This document shows, piece after piece, positions 8,680 through 39,018 of a stretch of 64,000 bases of DNA. The stretch's first letter is position 1; each line of letters opens with the position of its first letter. The DNA is from a phage, in sequence record PX880099.1; one strand, given 5' to 3'. The notes below the pieces were generated by a model. The model made no database searches, was not told the DNA's origin, and worked only from the letters and a program-made list of their open reading frames with translations. The position numbers were made by a program, and so were the translations under genes.

Positions 8680-8707
8680 ATCTTAACAGGACTAAAAAGC
8701 ATGTCAA
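8680..8707 (-). promoter_or_regulatory. sigma70-type promoter for the minus-strand operon (TTGACA-16-TAAGAT)
   Basis: Reverse complement reads TTGACATGCTTTTTAGTCCTGTTAAGAT, same architecture as the PeSL promoters. Confidence 0.45.
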
Positions 8708-9712: not shown

Positions 9713-9889
9713 ATGTCTGAATTCTTCACAATGGCTTTCTTAGGGATCTATCTGATTATTAGTGCTGTTGGCTTAATCATGTCTCTAATAGAGGAAATGG
9801 GAATTAAGTGGAATTGTGCATTCGGTATAGCTCTTATGCTCACTCCGGTTTGGATCTACATCTGCAAAGCAGTTGAACTCATTGGTTAA
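9713..9889 (+). CDS. small membrane protein
   Basis: Hydrophobic MSEFFTMAFLGIYLIISAVGLIM...; start re-picked to ATG after GGAG. Confidence 0.45.
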   Translation: MSEFFTMAFLGIYLIISAVGLIMSLIEEMGIKWNCAFGIALMLTPVWIYICKAVELIG

Positions 9890-10676: not shown

Positions 10677-10841
10677 ATGATTTTAAACTTCATCATCAAC
10701 TTGTGTTTGACATTGGGGTTACTCTGTGCAATAGTATCCCCTTTGGTTGGTGAATATTGTTCTGAACTGGCGATGTTTATAGTTCTTGGTGCGGCTATTG
10801 CTAATATGTTTGTCGCTGCGATTTGTATGTTGTGGGAATAG
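10677..10841 (+). CDS. small hydrophobic membrane protein (54 aa)
   Basis: Hand-translated MILNFIINLCLTLGLLCAIV..., SD AAGGAGAG. Confidence 0.4.
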   Translation: MILNFIINLCLTLGLLCAIVSPLVGEYCSELAMFIVLGAAIANMFVAAICMLWE

Positions 10842-10852
10842 GAGGGAAGTTT

Positions 10853-11209
10853 ATGAAAAAACTAATCTTAGCCACATTGCTGGCTACCGTAAGCTTCACC
10901 ACTTACGCTCAAAAATTTGTAGCAGTTAAAACAGATATTGGTAAAGATGTTGTGATCACAGGCAACAAGTTTTACTATACACCTGGGAATGGTGTTCTAG
11001 AAGAGTGTAAAGATGTTGAGGCATATACGGGAAAAGAAGATAACACGGAACGTCCTTTTTATTCGATTATAGCTACTTGCAAAAATGAAATAGTAGCTAT
11101 TAAACAATACAAAGATGCCCCTGGAGGAGAATACTTATTAGTCAAGAATATTAAGAGTGAAAAAACTGCAAAGTTTACAGTAATTATTTTAAAAGGAGAA
11201 ACGTTCTAA
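10853..11209 (+). CDS. secreted protein with signal peptide
   Basis: MKKLILATLLATVSFTTYA signal-like N-terminus; SD GGAGGGAAG. Confidence 0.55.
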   Translation: MKKLILATLLATVSFTTYAQKFVAVKTDIGKDVVITGNKFYYTPGNGVLEECKDVEAYTGKEDNTERPFYSIIATCKNEIVAIKQYKDAPGGEYLLVKNIKSEKTAKFTVIILKGETF

Positions 11210-14451: not shown

Positions 14452-14990
14452 GAATAACTGATGAATATGTATTCTTCTTTTCACATAAAGATGTGTTTAG
14501 TAATTGGTATATTGCACCCTTTACAGAAACTGAACCAGGTTACAATGAGACTTTCTGTTGTGTTGAGCAATATATGATGTGGCGTAAGGCTTTGCTGTTC
14601 AAGGATCATGCGATTGCAGCAGCTATCCTTGATCACTCAACTATACGTGACAACGAGAGGAAACAAGCATACTACAAACGTATGGGTCGAGCGGTATCTG
14701 GTTTTAATAATGATATGTGGGAAGAGAACCGTGAGCGTATTGTTATGCGAGGCTTATGCTTGAAATATGTACAGAATCCAGATTTGTATGCAGACTTACA
14801 CCTTTACCAATACAAAACGTTTGTTGAAGCAAATCCTTACGATAAGGTTTACGGTATTGGAATGGGAATGTATGAACCAGGGGTGCTAAACCCTGCTACC
14901 TGGAAAGGGCAGAATCTTTTAGGCAAATATCATAATAAACTGATCGAAATACTTTTCCCAGACAAAATACCGCAAAGACGATATTTGTGA
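14448..14990 (+). CDS. NADAR-domain (YbiA/DUF1768-like) protein, candidate ADP-ribose-processing enzyme
   Basis: 180 aa; FFFSHKDVFSNWYIAPF, CVEQYMMWRKALLF, W..NRERIVMRGLCLKY.QNPDL, GIGMG...W.GQNLLGK match the NADAR pattern. Confidence 0.7.
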   Translation: MRITDEYVFFFSHKDVFSNWYIAPFTETEPGYNETFCCVEQYMMWRKALLFKDHAIAAAILDHSTIRDNERKQAYYKRMGRAVSGFNNDMWEENRERIVMRGLCLKYVQNPDLYADLHLYQYKTFVEANPYDKVYGIGMGMYEPGVLNPATWKGQNLLGKYHNKLIEILFPDKIPQRRYL

Positions 14991-15233
14991 TATTTTAACT
15001 TTTTTCATTTTTAGAACAAAGGTGTCACTTTGTAGCACAGAAATAAGGCTCCTACAGCACCGTAGAGAGCCTGTTATTTTGTCCTATACAAACCCTTGTC
15101 TTTTTCAGTTTGCATCACTAGGATTCGATCTGAGTGGGTTCCTGAAGGTTTACCAATAAGATTAAAGGTTATATCAAATTCCCACTATCTTTTATCTCAA
15201 AAATCCCTCAAATTATTTAAACTTTTTAAGAAT

Positions 15234-15418
15234 TTACAAAAGTGAAAGTTGAAAACCAAAATTTAAAGTTTAGGAAAATTATCTTAAAATGTTAGATACA
15301 AAACAAAACTCAAAAGTCAAGGAAAATTTTAAAAATTTTGCGCGCCCACAGTATTTAAAGTTTTTTTGCTTTTACAAAAATGAAAGTACAAAAGCAAAAT
15401 TTAAAGTTTACAAAAATT
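15234..15418. repeat. pair of about 48-bp direct repeats (15234-15280 and 15371-15418) in an AT-rich non-coding region
   Basis: TTTACAAAAGTGAAAGTTGAAAACCAAAATTTAAAGTTTAGGAAAATT vs TTTACAAAAATGAAAGTACAAAAGCAAAATTTAAAGTTTACAAAAATT. Confidence 0.6.
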
Positions 15419-15433
15419 TTTATGCAGGTGAAA

Positions 15434-15548
15434 ATGAGAAGAGTTCTCATATGGAAATGCAAATGATAATGATTCGCATTTAAGTTTATAAATGAGATTG
15501 ATTCTTATTTAATAAGGTAAATGACAATCATTCTCATTTAGAGAATGA
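15434..15548. promoter_or_regulatory. cluster of palindromic hairpin or operator-like sites built on ATGAGAA/TTCTCAT and AATGAnAAT..ATTCTCAT (Fur-box-like)
   Basis: ATGAGAA-GAG-TTCTCAT (15434-15450), AAATGC-N15-GCATTT (15455-15481), TCATTCTC-ATTTA-GAGAATGA (15528-15548). Confidence 0.45.
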
Positions 15549-15761
15549 CGCGCAGGGGCGGTGTTTGTCTCGCGCTCCCGTGTCCACTCGCCATGTAATA
15601 AGAATAACAGATCCAGCCAGGAAAGCAAGCGATTATTTTATCTTTACATTTCTTTACAAATATATAGCACCCAGCCTACCGGCGATCAACCTTCCAACCA
15701 GTGCCCCCTGGTATGTTAGCCCCGCCTTTACGCCGTGGGGTGGCGCTTCCTCTTCTGTATG
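15541..15761 (-). ncRNA. candidate structured non-coding transcript from a GC-rich island
   Basis: Strong minus-strand promoter at 15768-15796, then about 220 nt of GC-rich sequence with several short stems and no ORF of 60 aa or more on that strand. Confidence 0.25.
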
Positions 15762-15767
15762 TAAAAC

Positions 15768-15796
15768 AGTATAAGCCCGATCCCTGGGCTTGTCAA
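15768..15796 (-). promoter_or_regulatory. sigma70-type promoter on minus strand (TTGACA-17-TATACT)
   Basis: Reverse complement reads TTGACAAGCCCAGGGATCGGGCTTATACT. Confidence 0.5.
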
Positions 15797-15798
15797 GA

Positions 15799-16065
15799 TT
15801 ATTTTTTGTTTTCTTGCCAGGATAGGACACCTAACCAAAAATACATATCGCCCCGCGCCCCTGGTGGTATCTTGCTTTCCCCGCCGCCACTGCAAGCCCA
15901 TAGATAACCATTTGCGAACGTATCAAAATGATCTATCTCTTCCACCTTATGATCGCCCAGGTTGAGAACGGTTTCAACCTTTAAGCCCGTTGCGCTTGCT
16001 ACCTGGTGCACCGTGCCGCCTTGCCAGCCCAATGAGTGCATAAGGTGTAATGTAGTATTTGTCAT
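15799..16065 (-). CDS. hypothetical protein (GC-rich, compositionally atypical)
   Basis: 88 aa ORF with upstream minus-strand TTGCTA-17-TATTAT promoter and a GCGCC..GGCGC hairpin in the leader. Confidence 0.35.
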   Translation of the reverse strand: MTNTTLHLMHSLGWQGGTVHQVASATGLKVETVLNLGDHKVEEIDHFDTFANGYLWACSGGGESKIPPGARGDMYFWLGVLSWQENKK

Positions 16066-16173
16066 GATATCGCCCTTTCTTTGTTGTGCGCCCTGGTTGG
16101 CGCGGTAGAAAGATAATAGCCCTTTTCTTTATATATAGCAAGCAAAAAGAAAATAAAAAAGATTGAAAAATGG

Positions 16174-16230
16174 TTGACGTTAACCAGGCGGCGGCGTAGT
16201 ATTCATCTTGTAGGGCGGCAATGGTGCCGC
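16174..16230 (+). promoter_or_regulatory. PeSL-like cassette 1: early promoter plus GC hairpin
   Basis: TTGACG-N17-TAGTAT, then GCGGCA-ATGG-TGCCGC. Confidence 0.6.
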
Positions 16231-16251
16231 TCACTATTTGGAGTTAAGATC

Positions 16252-17148: not shown

Positions 17149-17706
17149 ATGGGCCGCGAATATGTGATCCAGTCTTGGGTAAAACATGAAGCAGATGATC
17201 CGCGCATCATTCCCGATCATCTTATCGATGAATCCACGGGATATAGTGGTGAGCAAATAGGTAACAGATTAGCACGTAGTAACGGCAACGTAAAAGCGCG
17301 TTATGTGCGCCCTGGCTGGCTGGCAAATGGTAACGCTGATTTATCCAGTGCGGAAGATGCGAGCGACGGCGCGAAAGATAATCCTTTGTACAAAGTTGAT
17401 CCAGCTTTTCGTGTCCTGGATGAATACCCCAGCAAGATAGCGGCGCTCGATCAGGCCCTGGAAAGTAAGCGCATCACCTGGACCGCTTACAACATGGCAA
17501 AAAACGTACTTGATGGTAAATTGATTCAAGCTGAAAGAAAATTAGCCAAAATTGCAGCCATAGCCCAGGAGGAAGACGAGGAGACAACGGAAGAGGAAGA
17601 GTACGAAGAGATCCCGCCGTTGTTGTGTGTTGATGCTTTTCCTGATTATCAGCCGACAGAGGAAGAAAAAAGGATCGCACTAGAAAACTTTGAAAATAGT
17701 CTTTGA
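17149..17706 (+). CDS. hypothetical protein with acidic C-terminal tail
   Basis: 185 aa; ATG after AAAGGTGG. Confidence 0.5.
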   Translation: MGREYVIQSWVKHEADDPRIIPDHLIDESTGYSGEQIGNRLARSNGNVKARYVRPGWLANGNADLSSAEDASDGAKDNPLYKVDPAFRVLDEYPSKIAALDQALESKRITWTAYNMAKNVLDGKLIQAERKLAKIAAIAQEEDEETTEEEEYEEIPPLLCVDAFPDYQPTEEEKRIALENFENSL

Positions 17707-17760
17707 CATATCGCCGCCACTGGCATAATATTTACCACGTAGGGCGGCAATGGTGCCGCT
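17704..17760 (+). promoter_or_regulatory. PeSL-like cassette 4
   Basis: TTGACA-17-TAATAT, hairpin GCGGCA-ATGG-TGCCGC. Confidence 0.65.
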
Positions 17761-17788
17761 CATAGTGAAATTATGCAAGAGGCTTACA

Positions 17789-17884
17789 ATGATTAATAAA
17801 GAAAATAGCTTGACGGTTGGAACGATTAACGCTATCATTCTAGCCGTTCCATTTTGGGTTGTAGTAGCGGCTATTATTTTCTAA
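17789..17884 (+). CDS. hydrophobic micro-protein (31 aa)
   Basis: Hand-translated MINKENSLTVGTINAIILAVPFWVVVAAIIF between two PeSLs. Confidence 0.3.
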   Translation: MINKENSLTVGTINAIILAVPFWVVVAAIIF

Positions 17885-17892
17885 AAATATTC

Positions 17893-17953
17893 TTGACAAC
17901 GTTTTTTAATCTGATAAGATGTATCACGTAGGGCGGCGGAATACTTCCCCGCC
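17893..17953 (+). promoter_or_regulatory. PeSL-like cassette 5
   Basis: TTGACA-16-TAAGAT, hairpin GGCGG(C)GGAA-TAC-TTCCCCGCC. Confidence 0.65.
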
Positions 17954-17974
17954 AAAACAAAAAAGGGTAACACA

Positions 17975-18337
17975 ATGAGCAAGCAAATCAATACTATCAT
18001 GTTTAATCTGGTATCTTTCCGCGATGATATGAAAAATTTACCACGTGAAACGGTTGATATTCATGTTTCAGCTTATCGCGCCCTTATTGACATGTTACCG
18101 CTAAAACGTGATCAACATGCCGCTAATATGATGCTTAATGCTATGCTTAAAAAGATGATTCAAACGGATCTTACTCTGGCGTATGAGTATCAAGGGCGCT
18201 TATATGCGACTTACAACAAAGCGGTACCTGGTCTGGGAAGTACCGAAGAGTTGCACGGCTTAAACCTGGATCAAAACACTTGGGATAGTATGCGCCGCGT
18301 TATGGTATGGGCCGAAAGCGGTAAAATTTACGAATAA
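17975..18337 (+). CDS. small early protein
   Basis: 120 aa ORF. Confidence 0.55.
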   Translation: MSKQINTIMFNLVSFRDDMKNLPRETVDIHVSAYRALIDMLPLKRDQHAANMMLNAMLKKMIQTDLTLAYEYQGRLYATYNKAVPGLGSTEELHGLNLDQNTWDSMRRVMVWAESGKIYE

Positions 18338-18343
18338 AAACGG

Positions 18344-18400
18344 TTGACACTGTTTAAACTTCTGGTATAGTTTATCACGTAGGGCGGCAATGGTGCCGCC
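18344..18400 (+). promoter_or_regulatory. PeSL-like cassette 6
   Basis: TTGACA-16-TATAGT, hairpin GGCGGCA-ATGG-TGCCGCC. Confidence 0.65.
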
Positions 18401-18420
18401 AACAATAAAAGGTTAACATC

Positions 18421-18600
18421 ATGGCTATCATTGCAAAAACTGAGATTATAGGTTTAGATTCGATCCTCCTGGCTTATGAGGAAACTTTAAAAATGTATGT
18501 AGTGACCTATGGTGATTATGTGCGTGAATACGAATACATTGATCTTGCTTTCGAATGTTACATTCGCCAGGTCAATAAAGCCTATAATGATTATCGTTAA
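18421..18600 (+). CDS. small early protein (59 aa)
   Basis: Hand-translated MAIIAKTEIIGLDS...; conserved ATGGCTATC start. Confidence 0.45.
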   Translation: MAIIAKTEIIGLDSILLAYEETLKMYVVTYGDYVREYEYIDLAFECYIRQVNKAYNDYR

Positions 18601-18619
18601 AAGTTTTAGTCTTATACTA

Positions 18620-18671
18620 TTGACAATGAGTGATAGTATAAGCATAATAACTTTTATCGGGAATACTTCCC
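18620..18671 (+). promoter_or_regulatory. PeSL-like cassette 7 (shortened hairpin)
   Basis: TTGACA-17-CATAAT, hairpin GGGAA-TAC-TTCCC. Confidence 0.5.
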
Positions 18672-18697
18672 ACTAACCAAAAAGAGAGAGTGACACC

Positions 18698-19063
18698 ATG
18701 GCTATTAATATCAATGTTTCCGCTTATGCTACCCTGGCTAACACGGCTAAAATTGAATTATCCAGCATTGAGGCGGTGCATATTAGCGCCCGTCGCTGGT
18801 TTCAACAGTCCTACGGTAACACATATTTTTCTTTAATGGTTGACGTTGAGATCGGCGGTAAACTGATCGAGGTGGTTAACGTTCCGTTTCAATATGGCTA
18901 TGGTGATCATTTTGATACCGTCGCCCTGGAAGAATTTAGCAAGGTTATCAACCTTGAGGGCAAGGAATTTTCACGCGGCGCGTATCTTTCCCGTTTTTGC
19001 CGTGACAATGGGATCACTGTATACAGTCATGCAAGCGATGTAAAACGTAAAAAAGATTTATAA
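18698..19063 (+). CDS. small early protein
   Basis: 121 aa ORF, MAIN start. Confidence 0.55.
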   Translation: MAININVSAYATLANTAKIELSSIEAVHISARRWFQQSYGNTYFSLMVDVEIGGKLIEVVNVPFQYGYGDHFDTVALEEFSKVINLEGKEFSRGAYLSRFCRDNGITVYSHASDVKRKKDL

Positions 19064-19069
19064 AAAGCA

Positions 19070-19128
19070 TTGACAGCACGAATAAAAAGAGTAAACTGTA
19101 TTACATAGAGAGCGGGAATAGTTCCCGC
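19070..19128 (+). promoter_or_regulatory. PeSL-like cassette 8
   Basis: TTGACA-16-TAAACT, hairpin GCGGGAA-TAG-TTCCCGC. Confidence 0.65.
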
Positions 19129-19152
19129 CTCATTCAAAGAGAGATTATCATC

Positions 19153-19392
19153 ATGGCTATTACTAAAACTTACAACGGTCACAAAAACAAAACTCACTGG
19201 AATGTAAGCCTTTGGATTAATAACGACGAATCATTATATCGGTTGGCGAAAGAATTTATCGCCGCTAATACTAATCGTAATGATGCTGCCCGTGATATGA
19301 TGTTATTCCTGGAACAAACTGGACAAGATAAAACTCCAGACGGTTTCAAGTATAGCACTACAGCGATCCGCGCCGCGATGGTTGGAATGTAA
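19153..19392 (+). CDS. small early protein
   Basis: 79 aa ORF, MAIT start. Confidence 0.55.
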   Translation: MAITKTYNGHKNKTHWNVSLWINNDESLYRLAKEFIAANTNRNDAARDMMLFLEQTGQDKTPDGFKYSTTAIRAAMVGM

Positions 19393-19401
19393 TAAAAACA
19401 G

Positions 19402-19461
19402 TTGACAACGTTTAAAATTAGTGTAAGATGTATCACATAGGGCGGGAAGTGGTTTCCCGCC
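19402..19461 (+). promoter_or_regulatory. PeSL-like cassette 9
   Basis: TTGACA-16-TAAGAT, hairpin GGCGGGAA-GTGGT-TTCCCGCC. Confidence 0.65.
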
Positions 19462-19483
19462 AACAACAGAGAGATTAAAGATT

Positions 19484-19711
19484 ATGGCTATCAATATTGT
19501 TCGCGTATCCGGCACCGTTGGCACTTCCCAGGTTATTGCAGTTGTAACAAACAAAAAGATTAATGATGTATGTGAGATCTTGAATAAGTGGGCTATTGCT
19601 AATTTTGGGGAATATGCAAGCGTCGAGTACATCGAATCCTACCAGGTGCCAACCATCAGCCTGACCGATCTCAACGTTGATCGCCTGTTATGCCTGGATG
19701 AATTAATCTGA
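19484..19711 (+). CDS. small early protein
   Basis: 75 aa ORF, MAIN start. Confidence 0.55.
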   Translation: MAINIVRVSGTVGTSQVIAVVTNKKINDVCEILNKWAIANFGEYASVEYIESYQVPTISLTDLNVDRLLCLDELI

Positions 19712-19720
19712 AAAAGATTG

Positions 19721-19776
19721 TTGACACGGGAAAGAAAAAGAGTAAACTGTATTACGTAGGGCGGCAATAGTGCCGC
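19721..19776 (+). promoter_or_regulatory. PeSL-like cassette 10
   Basis: TTGACA-16-TAAACT, hairpin GCGGCA-ATAG-TGCCGC. Confidence 0.65.
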
Positions 19777-19801
19777 TCACAACAGAAGAGAGATTATCAC
19801 G

Positions 19802-20014
19802 ATGGCTAATATCCGCACACTGTTAAAAAATGCAAGTCAAGTTTTATTTTCTGATCACGATCATTTTAATAAAGATATTACAGGCGTGAAGAATATCAAA
19901 GATGTAAAAAGTGTTATGGGTATATATTGCAATGTTAAACGTGTTGGAACGTTCGGTGATAAAGTATTGTACCAATCAGGTGATTACAATTTTACTTTGA
20001 CGATTATTTCATAA
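19802..20014 (+). CDS. small early protein
   Basis: 70 aa ORF. Confidence 0.55.
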   Translation: MANIRTLLKNASQVLFSDHDHFNKDITGVKNIKDVKSVMGIYCNVKRVGTFGDKVLYQSGDYNFTLTIIS

Positions 20015-20019
20015 AACGC

Positions 20020-20081
20020 TTGCAATACTGCAAAAATAAAGTAAACTGTATTACATCAAGGCGGCGGAATGGTCCACCGCC
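20020..20081 (+). promoter_or_regulatory. PeSL-like cassette 11
   Basis: TTGCAA-16-TAAACT, hairpin GGCGGCGGA-ATGG-TCCACCGCC. Confidence 0.6.
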
Positions 20082-20105
20082 TAACAAAGAGAAGAGGAAA
20101 ATATT

Positions 20106-20273
20106 ATGATCACTTTCGCTACCCGTGAAGCCGCTCGCAACGTTGCACGTAAAGTTAACGCCGCCAACCTGGGCGCTACGCTTAAAGCCCCTGTAAAAGA
20201 TGAATCAGGAAAATGGATCTTCCCTGGTCTACGTCATGCTGACAAGTTAGGTACTTTAAGCCTTAAAAAATAA
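20106..20273 (+). CDS. small early protein (55 aa)
   Basis: Hand-translated MITFATREAARNVARKVNAANLG...; shares its first 16 nt with the gene at 20526. Confidence 0.45.
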   Translation: MITFATREAARNVARKVNAANLGATLKAPVKDESGKWIFPGLRHADKLGTLSLKK

Positions 20274-20276
20274 TCG

Positions 20277-20313
20277 TTGACTTTTCGTTATAGCGCCTTA
20301 TAATGGGCGCTAT
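20277..20313 (+). promoter_or_regulatory. promoter with palindrome overlapping the -10 (operator-like)
   Basis: TTGACT-16-TATAAT; inverted repeat ATAGCGCC-N8-GGCGCTAT spans the -10. Confidence 0.45.
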
Positions 20314-20350
20314 AGAGAAGAGAAACCAGTCACAACAGAGAGAAAATATC

Positions 20351-20512
20351 ATGACCAATAAAGAAAAAGCCATCATTAAAGCACATTATCCACATCTAAC
20401 ATTACGTTTTAAAGCCGATGGATCTGTTATGGCCTCCAGTGGGCGCGGGTATGCTTACGGTTTACTTTACACCGCACAACAAGCGCAAGATCATTTAAAC
20501 GCAGTAAAATAA
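20351..20512 (+). CDS. small early protein (53 aa)
   Basis: ATG (MTNKEKAII) after AGAGAGA; track start is upstream read-through. Confidence 0.45.
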   Translation: MTNKEKAIIKAHYPHLTLRFKADGSVMASSGRGYAYGLLYTAQQAQDHLNAVK

Positions 20513-20525
20513 CAAGGAAACCATT

Positions 20526-20747
20526 ATGATCACTTTCGCTATTGTCGCCGTTGTTGCTGGTCAAGTTTACGTAAATGAGACATTTACTACAGAAGACAAG
20601 GCAGCAGGAGATATAACCGCCGTTTACAATGAGTGCAAGGCAGTAGAAAGGATGTTAGCGCCTTGTATGCTAATGAGTGAACGCCAGGACGGAATAACAG
20701 TATTTACTAACATTGGAACAGGGTACCAAATGGTAGTAACAAAATAA
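20526..20747 (+). CDS. small early protein
   Basis: 73 aa ORF, hydrophobic N-terminus MITFAIVAVVAG. Confidence 0.5.
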   Translation: MITFAIVAVVAGQVYVNETFTTEDKAAGDITAVYNECKAVERMLAPCMLMSERQDGITVFTNIGTGYQMVVTK

Positions 20748-20750
20748 AGC

Positions 20751-20807
20751 TTGACACCGATTTAATTTTTAGTAAACTGTTACAGGTAGGGCGGGAATAG
20801 TTCCCGC
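20751..20807 (+). promoter_or_regulatory. PeSL-like cassette 13
   Basis: TTGACA-16-TAAACT, hairpin GCGGGAA-TAG-TTCCCGC. Confidence 0.65.
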
Positions 20808-20826
20808 TCAAAAAGAGAGAAAGACC

Positions 20827-21180
20827 ATGAAAGCACAAAATGCAATTAAAGAGTACATCCTTGCCGCTATCGATTTTAATGATTACGGTATTACAACCGA
20901 AAAAGAGAAGATCGCGGAATTGATGCGCCGTTTTAATTCCGAGTACTGGTACCCTGATAACCAATCACGTTTTAATTATAGTATTGTTAAAGCACTTGCA
21001 TCATGGTTACAAGGTTTGCCATCAGATATCAATATCGCTTTCGAATATTGGGAAATTGATCGCTTGTTAACATCCTGGGGATACATTAAAGAGAATAGCA
21101 GCGATGATAAAATCCAACGAGAAAGGGAAAATTATTGGCTTTATATTGCAGGCGTGATCCTTGCTTGCTCTTATGAATGA
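20827..21180 (+). CDS. small early protein
   Basis: 117 aa ORF. Confidence 0.55.
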   Translation: MKAQNAIKEYILAAIDFNDYGITTEKEKIAELMRRFNSEYWYPDNQSRFNYSIVKALASWLQGLPSDINIAFEYWEIDRLLTSWGYIKENSSDDKIQRERENYWLYIAGVILACSYE

Positions 21181-21186
21181 TAAACC

Positions 21187-21240
21187 TTGACAATTTTACA
21201 AAACAGTTTAAATTAACAATATAGCGGCAATGGTGCCGCT
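21187..21240 (+). promoter_or_regulatory. PeSL-like cassette 14
   Basis: TTGACA-16-TAAATT, hairpin AGCGGCA-ATGG-TGCCGCT. Confidence 0.6.
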
Positions 21241-21259
21241 CATATGAAGAGGAAACAAA

Positions 21260-21406
21260 ATGAATACATCTAATCGCGCAGAAAAAATTCAATCTTCCAA
21301 GATCCGCAAAGCCTGGAACGAGGAAGTGATCCGCAAAGGCGACAAGCGTAATAAAACAAAGCGCGGGAAGAGTGACAAATATAATTGGATGGATTTAGAG
21401 GATTAA
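21260..21406 (+). CDS. small basic protein (48 aa)
   Basis: Hand-translated MNTSNRAEKIQSSKIRKAWN... Confidence 0.4.
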   Translation: MNTSNRAEKIQSSKIRKAWNEEVIRKGDKRNKTKRGKSDKYNWMDLED

Positions 21407-21414
21407 CATAACAA

Positions 21415-21440
21415 GGGCGCATCAAGCGCCCTTTCTTTTT
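21415..21440 (+). terminator. rho-independent terminator
   Basis: GGGCGC-ATCAA-GCGCCC followed by TTTCTTTTT. Confidence 0.65.
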
Positions 21441-21461
21441 ACATGTAGAGGATAAACAAAA

Positions 21462-21647
21462 ATGACTTTAAACGAGCTTAAAACAGCCTACAACGCAACA
21501 TTAAAAATAGCCGTGCGTTACCGTGATGCGTATGGTTTTATCGCGCAGGGCGTGATCCTGGGCTTTTCTGACGATGGTTTGATCTATGTTGATGCACATC
21601 ACAACAAGGTTAAACCTGAAAACGTCATTAGCATAAAATATCTTTAA
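21462..21647 (+). CDS. small early protein
   Basis: 61 aa ORF. Confidence 0.5.
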   Translation: MTLNELKTAYNATLKIAVRYRDAYGFIAQGVILGFSDDGLIYVDAHHNKVKPENVISIKYL

Positions 21648-21653
21648 AAACGG

Positions 21654-21709
21654 TTGACAGCATAACCAAGTATGATAAGATGTATCACATAGGGCGGGAA
21701 TAGTTCCCG
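21654..21709 (+). promoter_or_regulatory. PeSL-like cassette 15
   Basis: TTGACA-16-TAAGAT, hairpin CGGGAA-TAG-TTCCCG. Confidence 0.6.
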
Positions 21710-21732
21710 ACCACATAAAAGAGAAAAACATT

Positions 21733-21945
21733 ATGACCACTATCACAACAAAACAAGAAAAAATTATTACAGACATTGCCGCAGTAGCCGCTATTGCTAT
21801 TATTGGTACCTACTATGACACCGCGCGACCTTCCTCCTTACATGAGATCGCCGCCGTTGCATCAGTTGGCGTACTGTTTTACGTTGGTAAACGCTATTTA
21901 TCACCAATGATTAACAAGCTGACACCGTGGAAAAATAAAGGTTGA
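21733..21945 (+). CDS. small membrane protein
   Basis: 70 aa, hydrophobic core IAAVAAIAIIGTYY...VGVLFYVG. Confidence 0.5.
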   Translation: MTTITTKQEKIITDIAAVAAIAIIGTYYDTARPSSLHEIAAVASVGVLFYVGKRYLSPMINKLTPWKNKG

Positions 21946-21996
21946 TCCTGTTTTATATTGTGTTATAGTTATCGTGTAGGGCGGCAATGGTGCCGC
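21942..21996 (+). promoter_or_regulatory. PeSL-like cassette 16
   Basis: TTGATC-16-TATAGT, hairpin GCGGCA-ATGG-TGCCGC. Confidence 0.6.
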
Positions 21997-22016
21997 GCCC
22001 CTTTGAGGATGCAATC

Positions 22017-22301
22017 ATGCGTAAAGCTAACACCGTGCTAATGTTTTCCCTGATTAATAATGCCGCTTACTTGTCCAACATGACGCAGGAGGGTAACACA
22101 TTAACGGCAACATTCACCAATAAGCTTGACCGAGTGATCATAATCTCACTGAAAACAGTTAGTAAAGGCTTTTACTCGTTAGCTTATCATTGTATCACTG
22201 ACACCGACGAGACAAGCCAGGACTATAGCGCCCCTTTCCCTGAATCAATGGCACGGGAGATCATCGCCGCCGTTGTAAATGATGGTTTGTTTACTGCATA
22301 A
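22017..22301 (+). CDS. small early protein
   Basis: Start at ATG (MRKANTV); track extension is hairpin read-through. Confidence 0.5.
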   Translation: MRKANTVLMFSLINNAAYLSNMTQEGNTLTATFTNKLDRVIIISLKTVSKGFYSLAYHCITDTDETSQDYSAPFPESMAREIIAAVVNDGLFTA

Positions 22302-22318
22302 AATAATTCAGAAAAGGC

Positions 22319-22375
22319 TTGCAATAATTTTCAGACCGTGTATATTTAATTCATAGGGCGGCGGGAATAGTTTCC
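22319..22375 (+). promoter_or_regulatory. PeSL-like cassette 17 (degenerate hairpin)
   Basis: TTGCAA-16-TATATT, weak GGAA..TTCC stem. Confidence 0.4.
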
Positions 22376-22398
22376 TAAGCAAACGAGAGGATTACACG

Positions 22399-22518
22399 AT
22401 GAGCAAGTATACAGTAGAATACACGGTAGAAAATCCGGCAGTATCCGAAGGTAAAAAGATGACATTTGCCATCAGTATAATCGCTTTCGTTATCACTATC
22501 TTATCAATCATCTTATAA
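22399..22518 (+). CDS. hydrophobic micro-protein (39 aa)
   Basis: Hand-translated MSKYTVEYTVENPAVSEGKKMTFAISIIAFVITILSIIL. Confidence 0.35.
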   Translation: MSKYTVEYTVENPAVSEGKKMTFAISIIAFVITILSIIL

Positions 22519-22528
22519 GGTGCGTACT

Positions 22529-22690
22529 ATGAAAACAACAGACATTATCAAAGAGATCGCCCTTGCCGCTGACGTTGAGATCGAGGAAGTGATCGCGCTC
22601 AACCTTACAGAAAACGATCTGCGCAACTATGAAGCGGAAAGCGTGAAAGCAAGCGGCGCGGTCCTGGCATATAATCCGGCTAACAAGTAA
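22529..22690 (+). CDS. small protein (53 aa)
   Basis: Hand-translated MKTTDIIKEIALAADVEIEEV... Confidence 0.4.
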   Translation: MKTTDIIKEIALAADVEIEEVIALNLTENDLRNYEAESVKASGAVLAYNPANK

Positions 22691-22699
22691 GGGGATAAC

Positions 22700-22810
22700 A
22701 TGAATCCAAAAGATATGCAAGCATGGAAAGGGTACGACGATCTAAGCGCCTTGCGCAATAAGTCAAGCCGTAACCTTAGACGGTTGGAAGCAAAGAAAAA
22801 GAAAAAATAG
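22700..22810 (+). CDS. small basic protein (36 aa)
   Basis: Hand-translated MNPKDMQAWKGYDDLSALRNK...KKKKK. Confidence 0.3.
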   Translation: MNPKDMQAWKGYDDLSALRNKSSRNLRRLEAKKKKK

Positions 22811-22811
22811 T

Positions 22812-22867
22812 TTGACAAGTCCGCCTAGTCTGATAATATGTATCTTGTAGGGCGGCAATGGTGCCGC
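22812..22867 (+). promoter_or_regulatory. PeSL-like cassette 18
   Basis: TTGACA-16-TAATAT, hairpin GCGGCA-ATGG-TGCCGC. Confidence 0.65.
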
Positions 22868-22888
22868 TCACAAGAAGAGAGAAAAATC

Positions 22889-23173
22889 ATGAAAATCACA
22901 AAAAGCCTAACTAATTATGCAGCACGTCGCGGATTATGTTTAACCGTTGAAAACTTAGGGAAAGAAGACTTTTTGTGTTTTTGGGAGCTTGAAAATGATT
23001 GCGAGTGGATGTTTTCTTATTCTATCTGCGAAGATCAAAACGGTTGTTTGTTAACCTGGCGCGGTAATATCTATTTACCGGAAGAAATTAAAGAAGAGTT
23101 ACCAGGTACGATCATGACAGAGAGACAGCTTAAGGAAGTGATCAATTTTGTAGGGCAAAACATTAAAAAATAA
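22889..23173 (+). CDS. small early protein
   Basis: Start at ATG (MKITKSL). Confidence 0.5.
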   Translation: MKITKSLTNYAARRGLCLTVENLGKEDFLCFWELENDCEWMFSYSICEDQNGCLLTWRGNIYLPEEIKEELPGTIMTERQLKEVINFVGQNIKK

Positions 23174-23174
23174 T

Positions 23175-23235
23175 TTGACAGTAGGCAAACAACGTAGTAA
23201 AGTTTATTACATAGAGCGGCGGAATGGTCCACCGC
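23175..23235 (+). promoter_or_regulatory. PeSL-like cassette 19
   Basis: TTGACA-17-TAAAGT, hairpin GCGGCGG-AATGGT-CCACCGC. Confidence 0.6.
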
Positions 23236-23258
23236 TCACAACAGAAGAGAAACAAATC

Positions 23259-23429
23259 ATGATCCCGACTATGTTTTATGTATCGCGCAAAGGTCACAAT
23301 ATTTTTTGGTCTGAAGATTTAAATGAAGCTATGACGTTTGCCCGTGATCGTGTTGCTATCGGTGGCGTTAATATCACCGTGACCGATGAAAACGGCATTG
23401 AATACTATAACGGCGATGATGAAGAGTAA
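23259..23429 (+). CDS. small early protein (56 aa)
   Basis: Start at ATG (MIPTMFYV). Confidence 0.45.
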   Translation: MIPTMFYVSRKGHNIFWSEDLNEAMTFARDRVAIGGVNITVTDENGIEYYNGDDEE

Positions 23430-23473
23430 TCAACAAGGCGGGATTAATTCCGCCTATATTAAAGGGTAATACA

Positions 23474-23611
23474 ATGAAAACTTTCAACGCAACAGCCTCG
23501 ACAATTGGTTATATTATTACAGTGCAAGCCGTGGATCTGGTAGCAGCAGCAAACAAGATTAAAAAGATGATCCCGCCAGGTAGTGAATTTTCCGTTTGGG
23601 AAGTAAAATAA
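23474..23611 (+). CDS. small protein (45 aa)
   Basis: Hand-translated MKTFNATASTIGYIITVQAV... Confidence 0.35.
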   Translation: MKTFNATASTIGYIITVQAVDLVAAANKIKKMIPPGSEFSVWEVK

Positions 23612-23614
23612 ACC

Positions 23615-23676
23615 TTGACAATAATTTGTTATCTGGTAAAGTGTATTACGTAGGGCGGGGCAATGGTGCAACGCCC
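23615..23676 (+). promoter_or_regulatory. PeSL-like cassette 20 (variant hairpin)
   Basis: TTGACA-16-TAAAGT, hairpin GGGCG-N13-CGCCC. Confidence 0.5.
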
Positions 23677-23694
23677 ATTAATGAGGGTAGAATC

Positions 23695-23799
23695 ATGTTA
23701 GAGAAAATTTTCACGGTTGTAATAGTGGGCCTGGCGTTATCGGTTGGAGTGGTTGCAACTATGGCTAACATGATCCTATCTTCCCACGGTATCGGTTAA
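23695..23799 (+). CDS. hydrophobic micro-protein (34 aa)
   Basis: MLEKIFTVVIVGLALSVGVVATMANMILSSHGIG. Confidence 0.35.
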   Translation: MLEKIFTVVIVGLALSVGVVATMANMILSSHGIG

Positions 23800-23809
23800 G
23801 GTGAAACAA

Positions 23810-23971
23810 ATGATCACGAACAAAACAGGCAAAACGGAATTTTTACGCGGCTTACAAGTTGGTAAGCCTGAGATCTGGCATTGCACGAAGTCCGCGCATA
23901 ATGAAATGAAAGATTTCACCGCTACTTTACAACGTGTTAAAATATCTATTACGCAGAAAAAGCCTTATTAG
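23810..23971 (+). CDS. small protein (53 aa)
   Basis: Hand-translated MITNKTGKTEFLRGLQVGKP..., SD AAGGTGA. Confidence 0.4.
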   Translation: MITNKTGKTEFLRGLQVGKPEIWHCTKSAHNEMKDFTATLQRVKISITQKKPY

Positions 23972-24020
23972 TAGTAGAAAACGAGATCCCGCAAACCATT
24001 ATTATTGTCGAGCGTACAGC

Positions 24021-24407
24021 ATGAAAACAGAAATCATTAACGAAATCATCAACGGCTATAAAGAAGCCTTTATTTTTGCTGAATCAGCAAGGGATCATGA
24101 AGGTAATTTTATAGATGACATGACTGATTATGATTTTTCAGATCAAGCCCATCAACGGATCGCCCAGGATGTAACAGCCTTTATTAATGCTAATCTTGCC
24201 GCTATCTCTGAGGCAATGAGCGACGGCGCAACAGCCAACCAGATCGGGAATGATTTACATTTTACCCGTAACGGTCACGGCGTAGGATTTTGGGATCGCC
24301 CTGAAATATACACCACTAACACGGCGAACCGCCTAACAAATGCAGCTAAGTTTATGCCGAACGTGTCGGCTTACATTGGTGAAGATAATTTGATTTATAT
24401 TGAATAA
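24021..24407 (+). CDS. hypothetical protein
   Basis: 128 aa from ATG (MKTEIINEI); weak RBS. Confidence 0.45.
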   Translation: MKTEIINEIINGYKEAFIFAESARDHEGNFIDDMTDYDFSDQAHQRIAQDVTAFINANLAAISEAMSDGATANQIGNDLHFTRNGHGVGFWDRPEIYTTNTANRLTNAAKFMPNVSAYIGEDNLIYIE

Positions 24408-24413
24408 AAAGTA

Positions 24414-24470
24414 TTGACACAGATCGCCAGTGTGCTAATATTTACCACGTAGGGCGGCAATGGTGCCGCC
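24414..24470 (+). promoter_or_regulatory. PeSL-like cassette 21
   Basis: TTGACA-16-TAATAT, hairpin GGCGGCA-ATGG-TGCCGCC. Confidence 0.65.
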
Positions 24471-24488
24471 GATAATGAGGAAAATAAA

Positions 24489-24788
24489 ATGGAAACTATC
24501 GCTATTGTTACCGTAGAAAAACTGGTTGTTGGTGATGTGTTCGCGTTAATGGTGCCTAACAGCAGCAAACTGGGCGCTTATGAAGTGATGGACCATAAAA
24601 ATGAATCATTTGGCGACGGTTGCACAATGGCGGTAAAATCCTTAAAGGATGGAATCATCCGCCAGGCTAACTGGCACAAAGGGAATCAAGTCGGTTTAAT
24701 ATCAGCTAATTTCTTGCCAGAAGAGCAAACGTTAGACCAACTATCAGGCGGTAAGACGTTAGCCGAACTACTGGAAACAGCGATCTAA
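24489..24788 (+). CDS. small early protein
   Basis: 99 aa ORF. Confidence 0.55.
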   Translation: METIAIVTVEKLVVGDVFALMVPNSSKLGAYEVMDHKNESFGDGCTMAVKSLKDGIIRQANWHKGNQVGLISANFLPEEQTLDQLSGGKTLAELLETAI

Positions 24789-24796
24789 TCAACAAA

Positions 24797-24812
24797 GGGG
24801 CGGCAACGCCCC
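24797..24812 (+). other. GNRA-loop hairpin (GGGGCG-GCAA-CGCCCC), intergenic
   Basis: Same design as 25079-25094; no T-tract, so RNA stability or processing element rather than a classical terminator. Confidence 0.45.
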
Positions 24813-24832
24813 ACATCAGAAAGGAAAAGATT

Positions 24833-25069
24833 ATGAGTATTGCAACAGTATTAAACGCCGTTAAAACCGCTGAATCATCCGGCTTGCATGTTGAGCTTAT
24901 AGATCAACCAGGTGGCGATCTCCTTGTCCAGGTTTACCCGCCGAAAGTAGGGGATGATTATTATTGGGCTTATTCTGATACGTTCGAACAAGTAGACACG
25001 AAAGCGATCACGGCTTTTATTTTAAAAGCTATTGAAGAAAATAACTTTCATCATAACATCAATCAATAA
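24833..25069 (+). CDS. small early protein
   Basis: 78 aa ORF, SD AAAGGAAAAG. Confidence 0.55.
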   Translation: MSIATVLNAVKTAESSGLHVELIDQPGGDLLVQVYPPKVGDDYYWAYSDTFEQVDTKAITAFILKAIEENNFHHNINQ

Positions 25070-25078
25070 ACCATAAGC

Positions 25079-25094
25079 GGGGCGGTAACGCCCC
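25079..25094 (+). other. GNRA-loop hairpin (GGGGCG-GTAA-CGCCCC), intergenic
   Basis: Paralogous to 24797-24812. Confidence 0.45.
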
Positions 25095-25123
25095 ATTAAA
25101 CGCAATAGGAAGAGGATAGACGC

Positions 25124-25414
25124 ATGAAAAACATGATCGCAGTAGTTGCCCTAGTTGTTGGTATTAACGCGCCTGTACTGGCTAATGAGTTGTCAGAATC
25201 CATCACGCTAACCGATATCAACGCAATAAACCGGATCGGCGTTAATTATCGCCTATGCCTTGCCGCTAAAACTTTCCAGGACGGCACGACAGAATACCAC
25301 GGATTCGAGGGTATCCGCTGCGGTGAGCTTGCACGCGACCTTAAAGAAGATCCAGACCTTGAGGCCATACCGATGACCGTAAACGGTAAAGCTTACGTAA
25401 ACCGCCAACAATGA
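25124..25414 (+). CDS. secreted small protein (signal peptide)
   Basis: MKNMIAVVALVVGINAPVLA signal-like N-terminus. Confidence 0.55.
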   Translation: MKNMIAVVALVVGINAPVLANELSESITLTDINAINRIGVNYRLCLAAKTFQDGTTEYHGFEGIRCGELARDLKEDPDLEAIPMTVNGKAYVNRQQ

Positions 25415-25545
25415 GAAAGGTAATCATCACAATGGGGATCGTAGTAGCAACGCTGGCGCTTATCCCCTTCATGGTTGAACATGTGCTGATCAGTGTTGTC
25501 CTTGTAGTCAGTGACCTATTGGAAACGGTTGGCACCTGGTTTTAA
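25411..25545 (+). CDS. hydrophobic micro-protein (44 aa)
   Basis: Hand-translated MRKVIITMGIVVATLALIPFMVEHVLISVVLVV..., ATGA-coupled. Confidence 0.35.
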   Translation: MRKVIITMGIVVATLALIPFMVEHVLISVVLVVSDLLETVGTWF

Positions 25546-25719
25546 GATAATAAATAGGGCTTGCAATAGTCCTATTTTTTGTTATACTTATTGAACGGGC
25601 GGCACCTGGGAGCAGGTGAAGATAATCACCGGAAGATCCCGCTATATATCGATAGCTAATACCTATCAAACAACAAAACATCAAAGAGATAAACTATCAA
25701 ATCTTTACAATCCTACCTA

Positions 25720-25778
25720 TTGACACCGGATCACGCTTACATTATTATTTATCACGTAGGGCGGGAATGTTTCCCGCC
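25720..25778 (+). promoter_or_regulatory. PeSL-like cassette 22
   Basis: TTGACA-16/17-TATTAT, perfect hairpin GGCGGGAA-TGT-TTCCCGCC. Confidence 0.65.
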
Positions 25779-25796
25779 TGATTTAGGAGTCATATC

Positions 25797-26030
25797 ATGA
25801 TCGAACAAATTAAAAGCACTAAACCAAATGTTAACGGTAATGTTTCTCACTTTATCGGGGATAATGAAAGAGGTACACCGTACGCCGCCGTAACCGTTCA
25901 ACCGAACGGGGATTATTGGTTTACCGTGTACGGATCTTACTCTTTTGGACGTTCGGCACATGATAAGATCTTGCAAGTGGTTAAGCCTACTGGGAAGAAT
26001 ATCACAGCAGAAAAATTTTATAAAAAATAG
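25797..26030 (+). CDS. small early protein
   Basis: 77 aa ORF, SD AGGAG. Confidence 0.55.
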   Translation: MIEQIKSTKPNVNGNVSHFIGDNERGTPYAAVTVQPNGDYWFTVYGSYSFGRSAHDKILQVVKPTGKNITAEKFYKK

Positions 26031-33759: not shown

Positions 33760-34074
33760 ATGTCAGAAGAACTTAAAGAATTTTATCAGGCATATCATAA
33801 CTGGCTATTAGCTGGTGCTCCAGATAATAATCCTTTCTGGCATGATAAAGGGTTATGTAGCTGCCTATATCTTTGGTCTGGTGGTTATGATGACCTAAAT
33901 TATGAAATGCAAATGCAATTCCGCGAAGCAGGTTTGTCTGAAGAATACCCGTTTGATGATGGGGATTGGTTTAAATATGATTTTGCACAAAGAAACGGGC
34001 TGCTACATTTGAATGCTGCTCGTATAAAATGGGTAAAAGATCATGTCACACAGGAGGATGTGCAATGCCTATAG
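33760..34074 (+). CDS. paralog family A member 2
   Basis: FYQAYHNWL...GLCSCL...EYPF...RIKWVKDHV. Confidence 0.6.
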   Translation: MSEELKEFYQAYHNWLLAGAPDNNPFWHDKGLCSCLYLWSGGYDDLNYEMQMQFREAGLSEEYPFDDGDWFKYDFAQRNGLLHLNAARIKWVKDHVTQEDVQCL

Positions 34075-34265
34075 TGTTTGTTTTCTTGGCAATTGTTATG
34101 GTGGTTCTTTTCGCTGTATGGCTTTGGGATTTTGACCCAGGAGCCGCGCAGCAAAGAGCTACAGACTTGAAAGAACAATGTATTGTGCTCAAACATGAAC
34201 GAAATGCGGAGAAATTTCTTGACCTGGAGTGTGATCGCCTTGTAAGATACAAGCAAGATAAATAA
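34065..34265 (+). CDS. small membrane protein
   Basis: MPIVFVFLAIVMVVLFAVWLW after CAGGAGG. Confidence 0.45.
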   Translation: MPIVFVFLAIVMVVLFAVWLWDFDPGAAQQRATDLKEQCIVLKHERNAEKFLDLECDRLVRYKQDK

Positions 34266-34996: not shown

Positions 34997-35395
34997 ATGA
35001 AAAAGATTATCGTAGGTTTATTGTTACTCATTGCATCTCTTGGAACAGCGAATGCATCTCAAGTTTATGAGTGTGTATCAGACGTAGTTGTTAAAAATCT
35101 GAAAGGTGAAGTGATTTCTGGTCCTAAGAAAATGGCTTCTGTTGTCATTAATAAAGACAACTCCTTTATCCTTAAAAATTCGGGTGGTGCTTTGATGAGC
35201 GGTATTCTTCAAAACACAGGAGGAAAGAGTAAAGATGGAAGTTCTATGTACGGTTCACAGCAGTTTATTGGCACTACCGAAGTTGTGATGATGCGCACAG
35301 AGTATCGAGATACTTTAGCTTGGTTTGCATTTCTAAAAAATGATAAAACAATAACGAATGTTCTTACTCTAGAAGCTGATTGTACGCAACGATAA
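34997..35395 (+). CDS. secreted protein (signal peptide)
   Basis: MKKIIVGLLLLIASLGTANA. Confidence 0.55.
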   Translation: MKKIIVGLLLLIASLGTANASQVYECVSDVVVKNLKGEVISGPKKMASVVINKDNSFILKNSGGALMSGILQNTGGKSKDGSSMYGSQQFIGTTEVVMMRTEYRDTLAWFAFLKNDKTITNVLTLEADCTQR

Positions 35396-38694: not shown

Positions 38695-39018
38695 ATGCAA
38701 GCAGTTGTTAACGAAGCTATTATGAACTTATCCTTCTTGTTAGCTGGTTTAGGAGGTGTTCTCATAGGTTTGGCTCTTATCTGGTGTATTCGTCGATTAA
38801 TCGGGTACCGACAAAAAGGTGTTTCATGTTTTGTATCTTACAATTTTACAACTGCTTACAGCAATGAGGTTGGATCTGGTAATGCTCAAGCATTTTTACC
38901 AACATATCCTCCTACGGTGGAAGATATTCGAAACTTGGAAGTAGAACTTATGGGACTAAGTGATAACTATACATCTCTCGTTATTCAAAATATTTTTCGA
39001 CTAAAACAGGAGGCGTGA
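38695..39018 (+). CDS. membrane-anchored hypothetical protein
   Basis: N-terminal hydrophobic LSFLLAGLGGVLIGLALIWCI. Confidence 0.5.
   Translation: MQAVVNEAIMNLSFLLAGLGGVLIGLALIWCIRRLIGYRQKGVSCFVSYNFTTAYSNEVGSGNAQAFLPTYPPTVEDIRNLEVELMGLSDNYTSLVIQNIFRLKQEA

Follow-up and report, generated by a model that had tools for sequence, protein, structure and literature searches.

The T4 proteins Imm and Sp and the HK97 protein gp15, a prophage moron product, block DNA entry by superinfecting phages. Imm and Sp are membrane exclusion proteins that act in lytic infection (PMC11436027), and bacterial small membrane proteins such as MgrB, AcrZ, KdpF and CydX are single-helix proteins of 30–50 amino acids (aa) in which a few specific, partner-contacting residues confer function (PMC12648545). 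At the level of gene organisation, promoter-early stem-loop (PeSL) cassettes flank ORFans in the T4-type phages RB49 and phi1 (PMC2839356). Here we analyse six short open reading frames (ORFs), referred to as micro-genes A to F, in a stretch of phage DNA of 64,000 nucleotides (nt) (sequence record PX880099.1; hereafter the window), where a first-pass annotation had pointed to hydrophobic micro-proteins of 31–54 aa. All six ORFs were found as described, each with an ATG start (Table 1). Over positions 17500–26000 the window is 98.6% identical to Escherichia phage vB_EcoM-Ro121lw across 98% of the length, 95–97% identical to Mt1B1_P17, tuntematon and other Phapecoctavirus (Stephanstirmvirinae), and ~85% identical, in patches only, to phi92-like Justusliebigvirus; by sequence identity the window is assigned to Phapecoctavirus, a phAPEC8/phi92-like E. 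coli myovirus. Relatives in this genus are virulent E. coli myoviruses of ~150 kb. Micro-genes A–F are six separate and mutually unrelated small genes in the + strand accessory block of this phage, a long run of small genes at ~8.7–46.4 kb that holds, on a rough map, ~107 genes, 24 of them of 60 aa or less.

Micro-genes A–E are almost certainly real genes for small membrane proteins. The reading frames of all six micro-genes are intact in 64–228 phage records each, as counted by tblastn against 50,697 phage records with nearly all matches full-length; frames were also checked, with ATG starts, in ten fetched relatives from two genera. Ratios of non-synonymous to synonymous polymorphism (pN/pS) against the window sequence lie mostly between 0.12 and 0.5, with values of 0.58–0.83 for near-identical pairs that differ by only 3–4 substitutions, and the variable columns of A–D, summed by codon position ([40,16,62]), show a third-position excess (chi-square p=1.4e-6). 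These substitution patterns indicate that A–F are under purifying selection. Ribosome-binding sites or start-stop coupling are present at the exact ORFs. When all six frames of the + strand block (8.7–46.45 kb) were scanned for hydrophobic ATG-started ORFs of 30–55 aa, ten were found against 1.0 +/- 1.0 in random first-order Markov sequence, and six of these correspond exactly to the gap-filling ORFs of the coding strand. The proposal that these are genuine genes is thus borne out by intact frames, third-position bias and pN/pS, confidence being high for A, C, D, E and F and good for B, and the initial observation is confirmed as correct and beyond chance.

A different reading of ORFs this short is that they do not encode functional proteins at all, being either chance ORFs or leader/upstream ORFs whose translation regulates the downstream gene. 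Besides their very small size, B and C are each followed by the next gene after 10 nt, and gene callers differ on the starts of C and D, as would be expected on such a reading. Conservation is nevertheless seen at the amino-acid level together with the third-position bias, the ORFs persist full-length in up to 228 genomes at identities down to 50%, and their hydrophobic helices are retained through substitutions. Neither A nor D has a coupled downstream gene, with a promoter lying after A and a terminator after D. We consider it very improbable that these ORFs are without a functional product.

Membrane character was assessed from hydropathy and from predicted insertion energies. The best 19-residue Kyte-Doolittle mean is 2.4–2.7 for A–E and 1.19 for F, and 19-residue sums on the Hessa biological scale are negative (insertion predicted) for A–E. 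The combination of a 17/19-residue Kyte-Doolittle mean of at least 2.4 with a negative Hessa sum also holds for one additional ORF at 9713, which was absent from the original list. The description of all six as hydrophobic membrane peptides therefore stands for A–E and not for F, and the further expectation of a single transmembrane helix stands for A–D, whereas E is predicted to contain two helices and F is not credible as a transmembrane helix. Based on sequence, A–D are most likely single-pass inner-membrane peptides with a cytoplasmic N-terminus, the orientation following from the positive-inside rule (K4 in A, K19/K20 in B, K4 in C, R2/K3 in D). An AlphaFold2 single-sequence model of E places helices at residues 2–23 and 29–53 (mean predicted local distance difference test score, pLDDT, 76), and E most likely inserts as a helical hairpin. 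F is not convincing as a transmembrane peptide and most likely shows peripheral anchoring at most.

Table 1. Positions of micro-genes A–F and of the features discussed with them, in window coordinates.
Feature	Position	Strand	Product and start	Description
Micro-gene A	17789-17884	+	31 aa, ATG	MINKENSLTVGTINAIILAVPFWVVVAAIIF; polar N-terminus of ~10 residues, then predicted C-terminal transmembrane helix containing Pro21 and Trp23
Micro-gene B	22399-22518	+	39 aa, ATG	MSKYTVEYTVENPAVSEGKKMTFAISIIAFVITILSIIL; polar conserved N-terminal peptide of 20 residues, then predicted C-terminal transmembrane anchor
Micro-gene C	23695-23799	+	34 aa, ATG	MLEKIFTVVIVGLALSVGVVATMANMILSSHGIG; short N-terminus MLEK, one predicted transmembrane helix, conserved C-terminal half and tail
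Micro-gene D	25411-25545	+	44 aa, ATG	MRKVIITMGIVVATLALIPFMVEHVLISVVLVVSDLLETVGTWF; MRK N-terminus, predicted transmembrane helix at 4-22, second hydrophobic stretch, SDLL..(V/I)GT(W/L)F end
Micro-gene E	10677-10841	+	54 aa, ATG	predicted two-helix hairpin, four cysteines, operon-internal
Micro-gene F	45462-45563	+	33 aa, ATG	MVSFIVGVVVGYLINKYQDVITAKVKDILDSSK; hydrophobic N-terminus of 14 residues, then charged amphipathic tail
Cassette before A	17703-17759	+		TTGACA-17-TAATAT (promoter-like site 17703-17731), then GCGGCAATGGTGCCGC
Weaker promoter-like site before B	22319-22346	+		TTGCAA-16-TATATT, degenerate stem-loop
Cassette before C	23615-23676	+		TTGACA-16-TAAAGT with TG (promoter-like site 23615-23642), GC-rich hairpin
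Upstream neighbour of D	25124-25414	+	96 aa	signal-peptide-like N-terminal segment (MKNMIAVVALVVGINAPVLANE), phrog_9845
Terminator-like element directly after D	25552-25577	+		hairpin and T-run
Additional small membrane gene	9713-9889	+	58 aa	two hydrophobic helices, full-length phrog_22639 match

The block is punctuated by a repeated cassette in which TTGACA is followed after 16–17 nt by TAnnnT and ~10 nt later by a GC-rich hairpin such as GCGGCAATGGTGCCGC. Units resembling PeSL cassettes precede A and C (10/12 hexamer matches plus hairpin) and, in weaker form, B (9/12, degenerate hairpin); none precedes D, E or F, which are operon-internal genes. The first-pass annotation had described the ORFs as cassette-driven, and this applies to A, B and C only, given that D starts in an ATGA overlap and that E and F are each preceded by a stop codon together with a GGAG ribosome-binding site. 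Promoter-like sites on the antisense strand occur at background level. The cassette before A is also found in tuntematon and is missing before A in phi92, ESCO9, PD211 and the phiWec phages; the promoter-like site of B is conserved in tuntematon, phiWec179 and phiWec188, and in phi92, Murica and phita32 C lacks its cassette. Cassette and peptide gene do not form an obligate pair. The dense sigma-70-type promoter/stem-loop cassettes are consistent with the proposed phage early region, and host RNA polymerase would probably transcribe the block from these promoters early in infection. A, B and C would then be expressed as the first gene after a promoter/stem-loop cassette, and D, E and F would be translated as operon-internal genes, D by stop-start overlap.

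A is the sole gene between two cassettes, with a new promoter downstream of it. It is intact in 10/10 fetched relatives at lengths of 31–35 aa and present in 108 phage records. Its N-terminal two-thirds are kept, as MI(N/K)KENSLTVGTINAI.L.VP.W, and the C-terminal end is variable in sequence and length; pN/pS values range from 0.15 to 0.5 and variable columns by codon position are [11,5,20]. A has neither a PHROG nor a Pfam match, and is annotated in Mt1B1_P17, Ro121lw and tuntematon. In phiWec179, 186 and 188 an extra hydrophobic ORF of 27 codons (MFTTSLFFAINFIPGFRAALEIILWTL) lies right after the cassette hairpin, ~95–10 nt upstream of the A homolog at 2363, and the window has no counterpart of this ORF.

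B heads a three-gene unit, followed after 10 nt by 22529–22690 and then by 22700–22810. It is intact in 7/10 relatives, and three more carry divergent copies of 39–42% identity that were seen by tblastn with reading frames unchecked; in total B occurs in 64 phage records. The peptide matches phrog_10979, labelled 'membrane protein', over residues 1–39 of 39 (E-value 4.9e-23). Conservation is concentrated in the N-terminal 20 residues, MSKYTV(E/Q)YT.ENPA..(E/A)G(K/R), a stretch that both the divergent Justusliebigvirus copies and Salmonella phage PMBT28 retain. The motif YTV.Y..ENPA...G(K/R) is shared by the Justusliebigvirus copies (39–42%) and PMBT28 (51%), in which the helix is swapped for other apolar residues. 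PMBT28 is an unrelated 48-kb Salmonella phage with its B homolog at 2501–2620 of locus L016, and B is the only gene common to this locus and the window, so B travels as a single-gene unit. Near its B homolog PMBT28 carries another hydrophobic ORF of 40 aa (4198–4320). The third gene of the B unit, 22700–22810, is a very basic micro-ORF of 36 aa (MNPKDMQAWKGYDDLSALRNKSSRNLRRLEAKKKKK) that is annotated as a 111-nt coding sequence in relatives; its product is a non-membrane micro-protein that possibly binds nucleic acid. A neighbouring 104-aa gene, when used as query, matched one IMG/VR contig.

C is the most widely distributed of the six, being present in 228 phage records with every match covering at least 80% of the query, and it is intact in 10/10 fetched relatives. 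It matches phrog_14631 over residues 1–34 of 34 (E-value 1.7e-22), has variable columns by codon position of [4,1,10], and extends to another subfamily, the rV5-like Vequintavirinae, at 50–59% identity. In the rV5-like copies (Murica, phita32) the N-terminal half is replaced (MKQKLIDAAILIIAL...) and G.(I/V)ATM(A/S)NMILSS(H/N)GIG is retained, in line with the conserved end ATMANMILSSHGIG. The 34-aa reading of C is the conserved one, and in Murica it is fixed by an in-frame stop codon that lies 9 nt before the ATG. Versions of 48–67 aa produced by some pipelines, often picked by gene callers, traverse the promoter cassette, and we rejected the 67-aa TTG start of the Ro121lw annotation on account of its passage through the cassette and the Murica stop. 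In both subfamilies a phrog_5988 gene lies 10 nt downstream of C. In the window this gene (23810–24025) is frameshifted, with a product of 53 aa compared with 71 aa in relatives; the indel, at ~23957–23961, is an A5 run where Mt1B1_P17, tuntematon and ESCO9 have A6, and PD211 also has A5. Either the homopolymer was misread in sequencing or the tract is truly variable.

D is the fourth gene behind a promoter at 24414 and the last in its transcription unit, and its start codon overlaps the stop of the gene at 25124–25414. It is intact in 8/10 fetched relatives, absent in phi92 and ESCO9, and present in 68 records, with a match to phrog_16005 over residues 1–44 of 44 (E-value 5.5e-30) and variable columns by codon position of [18,6,22]. 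MRK..., ATLALIPF and SDLL..(V/I)GT(W/L)F are conserved, and residue 23 alternates between E, K and R. An alternative start at 25432, giving 37 aa, is possible and is the one used in Ro121lw. The phrog_9845 gene upstream of D also occurs in Vequintavirus loci that have no D.

E is present in 71 records and matches phrog_27459 over residues 1–54 of 54 (E-value 1.4e-38). Copies at 40–47% identity retain the order helix, P..(I/V)GE turn, helix, together with a ...CML(W/L/F)(E/D) end. E is followed by 10853–11209, which encodes a 118-aa protein with a signal-peptide-like N-terminus. F lies inside a long operon and is present in 127 records, at ~60% identity in Justusliebigvirus; its residues 1–33 match positions 1–48 of 49 of the phrog_11666 profile (E-value 1.4e-12).

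The part that is conserved thus differs from peptide to peptide: the 20-residue cytoplasmic peptide in B, the outer helix half and SSHGIG tail in C, the N-terminus and Pro/Trp helix in A, and the C-terminal SDLL..GT.F in D. Because each peptide conserves a different specific part, sequence-specific binding is the most likely mode of action; comparison of the sequences suggests that conservation limited to motifs is what partner recognition would lead one to expect, and less what would be expected of peptides needing bulk hydrophobicity only. We posit that the peptides would insert into the inner membrane, and that each may bind one specific membrane or membrane-proximal partner of host or phage origin, which would then be modulated in the manner of MgrB-type proteins or T4 Imm/Sp. 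The most plausible outcomes would be superinfection exclusion or an adjustment of some envelope or transport machine. Taken as a whole, this target-binding picture has in our view a probability of roughly 0.55. The interpretation first offered for these peptides is reasonable and partly supported, and goes too far on the cassettes, on annotation and on F.

Peptides of this kind could instead be membrane-active without a specific partner, oligomerising in the manner of type I toxins or holins to depolarise or permeabilise the inner membrane, with possible roles in shutting off host metabolism or in keeping out the DNA of other phages by dissipating the proton-motive force. Their size and composition, at less than 60 aa with one helix and short termini, are like those of type I toxins (PMC12648545), small-residue pairs in C (G12, S16, G18, A21, A24) could allow helix packing, and F has a weak, non-significant match to a holin PHROG (E-value 0.091). 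What is conserved, however, is not overall hydrophobicity but particular motifs that are polar or terminal, no toxin or holin family is matched, and searches of Pfam/NCBIfam placed none of the peptides in the known toxin families Hok/Gef, TisB, Ldr, Ibs or ShoB. The lysozyme gene (58891–59391, - strand) is not adjacent to the micro-genes and lies 13–40 kb off, which makes any of A–F unlikely as the holin of a lysis cassette, and the C-termini of A, B and C are apolar or neutral, unlike the charged tail of a holin. The promoters are moreover of the sigma-70 type, and early depolarisation would be expected to hurt the phage's own replication. A non-specific action therefore appears improbable.

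Several points weigh against the target-binding picture and the coding and membrane assignments beneath it. Motif conservation could also stem from oligomerisation, as in a pore. The codon-position bias of B taken alone is not significant ([7,4,10], p=0.28), and several of the comparisons are between very similar sequences, so that counts are small. F fails as a transmembrane peptide, with a Hessa sum of +9.75 over 19 residues and ~14 apolar residues. None of the peptides has a homolog of known function in Pfam, NCBIfam, PADLOC, PHROGs or PDB, and ten neighbouring genes match only PHROGs of unknown function and no Pfam domain. Ribosome profiling, proteomics or fractionation data for this phage group were not found in the literature.

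The homology searches return the same phage families throughout. Full-length PHROG profile matches were obtained for B, C, D, E and F, with E-values from 1e-12 to 1e-38; the PHROG families of B–F carry no function assignment, and A has no PHROG family. At E-values of 1 or less, Pfam and NCBIfam returned nothing for A–D and only sub-threshold noise for E and F, and a PDB sequence search of B, C, D and E gave no meaningful match. For a search of a large protein database, which needs queries of at least 40 aa, B and C were extended by a few upstream in-frame codons, and the extended queries match only the same phage family. No match to an exclusion-annotated PHROG, or in Pfam or PADLOC, links the peptides to exclusion proteins. 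For the roles first proposed, namely superinfection exclusion and inhibition of transporters or of division, neither homology nor genomic neighbourhood nor the literature yielded evidence either way. Among 5,426 complete E. coli genomes there was no chromosomal or prophage copy of 22399–23799. A literature search on Phapecoctavirus, phi92 and rV5 found nothing specific on transcription, translation or function of A–F.

Counter-defence genes are usually located in variable accessory regions, and the micro-genes sit in just such a region of small genes that vary between phages. They could therefore be anti-defence factors directed against membrane-bound effectors such as abortive-infection pore formers, membrane nucleases or Zorya-type complexes. 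In favour of such a role, B moves as a single gene between unrelated phages, and defence systems of E. coli that target Stephanstirmvirinae and Vequintavirinae have been described (PMC13463889). A, C and F, however, are near-universal in their subfamily or subfamilies, a distribution that a core infection function fits better than a strain-specific arms race, and none of the peptides matches known anti-defence or defence-associated proteins. An anti-defence role for the set is thus doubtful.

Within the target-binding picture, more pointed readings can be put forward for two of the peptides. The outer-leaflet half and SSHGIG tail of C are almost invariant across two subfamilies (228 genomes), and C might act on a single inner-membrane machine of the host as its specific inhibitor or adaptor peptide, for example in DNA entry, envelope biogenesis or division. 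B might similarly be a membrane-tethered cytoplasmic ligand of 20 residues that has moved alone between unrelated phages. We regard both as speculative and, as worded, unlikely; if true, each would be a new case of a phage peptide matched to a host target.

The suggestion that such peptides are usually missed by annotation is for the most part wrong. Ro121lw carries hypothetical-protein annotations for all six, with C in the 67-aa TTG version and D in the 37-aa version, and five have PHROGs; the RefSeq record of Mt1B1_P17 annotates A, B and D, with B as 'membrane protein'. The suggestion does hold for C, which lacks any feature in ~14/27 annotated records sampled, about half, and possibly for D, which has no feature in 6/14 sampled records, a count that is ambiguous because D overlaps its neighbour.

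Several other genes of the + strand block have membrane or export features. Predicted helices occur in 34065–34265 (66 aa, N-terminal helix), 38695–39018 (107 aa) and 42773–42982 (69 aa, several helices), and 21733–21945 (70 aa) has two moderately hydrophobic stretches. Signal-peptide-like N-termini are present in three small-protein genes (10853–11209, 25124–25414 and 34997–35395), the first of which adjoins E and the second D, a hint of gene pairs directed at the envelope. The next gene after A, of 120 aa (17975–18337), is labelled 'membrane protein' in tuntematon and ESCO9, yet no segment of it is hydrophobic (best Kyte-Doolittle 17-residue mean 0.94), and the label is probably an annotation-transfer error. 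A search of the gaps of 8.7–27.1 kb for further tiny ORFs of 10–30 aa with a ribosome-binding site gave one weak candidate only, at 8701. At 15209–15418 an AT-rich direct repeat of 72 nt occurs twice (copies 82% identical, 138 nt apart) in a gene-poor stretch (~14990–16250) that holds no convincing ORF.

The region or its micro-genes also occur in records named as Campylobacter, Acinetobacter, Pseudomonas and Klebsiella phages. The Acinetobacter phage vB_AbaM_ABPW7 is 96.1% identical across the region and Campylobacter phage A150 ~86% over 44%, and matches to peptides only were seen in the Klebsiella phage ZCKP1 (A 96.8%, E 100%) and the Pseudomonas phage PsgM04F (F 82%, E 40%). Host labels in these records seem questionable.

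Both Phapecoctavirus and phi92-like phages are therapy candidates and find use against pathogenic E. coli. Small membrane proteins are under-studied, and phage versions that bind a host machine can expose weak points of the envelope or explain superinfection exclusion. For annotation, A–F are worth keeping, with C as 34 aa and not as a 48–67 aa read-through, and F is not to be counted among transmembrane peptides. The conserved motifs indicate the first residues to mutate. All six already have database entries as hypothetical proteins, and phage accessory regions are known to contain small membrane proteins; the present evidence points to no new kind of biology, and C and B are the strongest candidates for follow-up.

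The closest described counterparts of the micro-genes are the PHROG families 10979, 14631, 16005, 27459 and 11666 and the GenBank 'hypothetical protein' entries of Phapecoctavirus and Justusliebigvirus, which are the same families in the same positions in Ro121lw, Mt1B1_P17 and tuntematon. Among characterised proteins, Imm, Sp and gp15 are likewise small inner-membrane proteins encoded by phages and offer the most plausible analogy for how the micro-proteins would act, although there is no sequence similarity (no PHROG/Pfam cross-match). At ~80–100 aa or more, Imm, Sp and gp15 are also larger than the micro-proteins. The type I toxins Hok/Gef, TisB, Ldr and Ibs share with the micro-proteins a similar length and a single hydrophobic helix (PMC12648545), but the micro-genes differ in having strong constitutive-type promoters and good ribosome-binding sites, and no antisense RNA arrangement is evident, no dedicated search having been made. 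MgrB-type regulators have no homology to the micro-proteins; their reliance on a few partner-contacting residues matches the motif-restricted conservation of B and C. With the PeSL cassettes of T4-type phages the window shares a strong sigma-70-like promoter and a GC-rich stem-loop repeated between small accessory genes, with a cassette that is optional among relatives, while differing in phage subfamily, in cassette sequence and in the placement of the stem-loop downstream of the -10 element. By analogy, the cassette organisation of this block appears to parallel that of the PeSL cassettes by which ORFans are shuffled.

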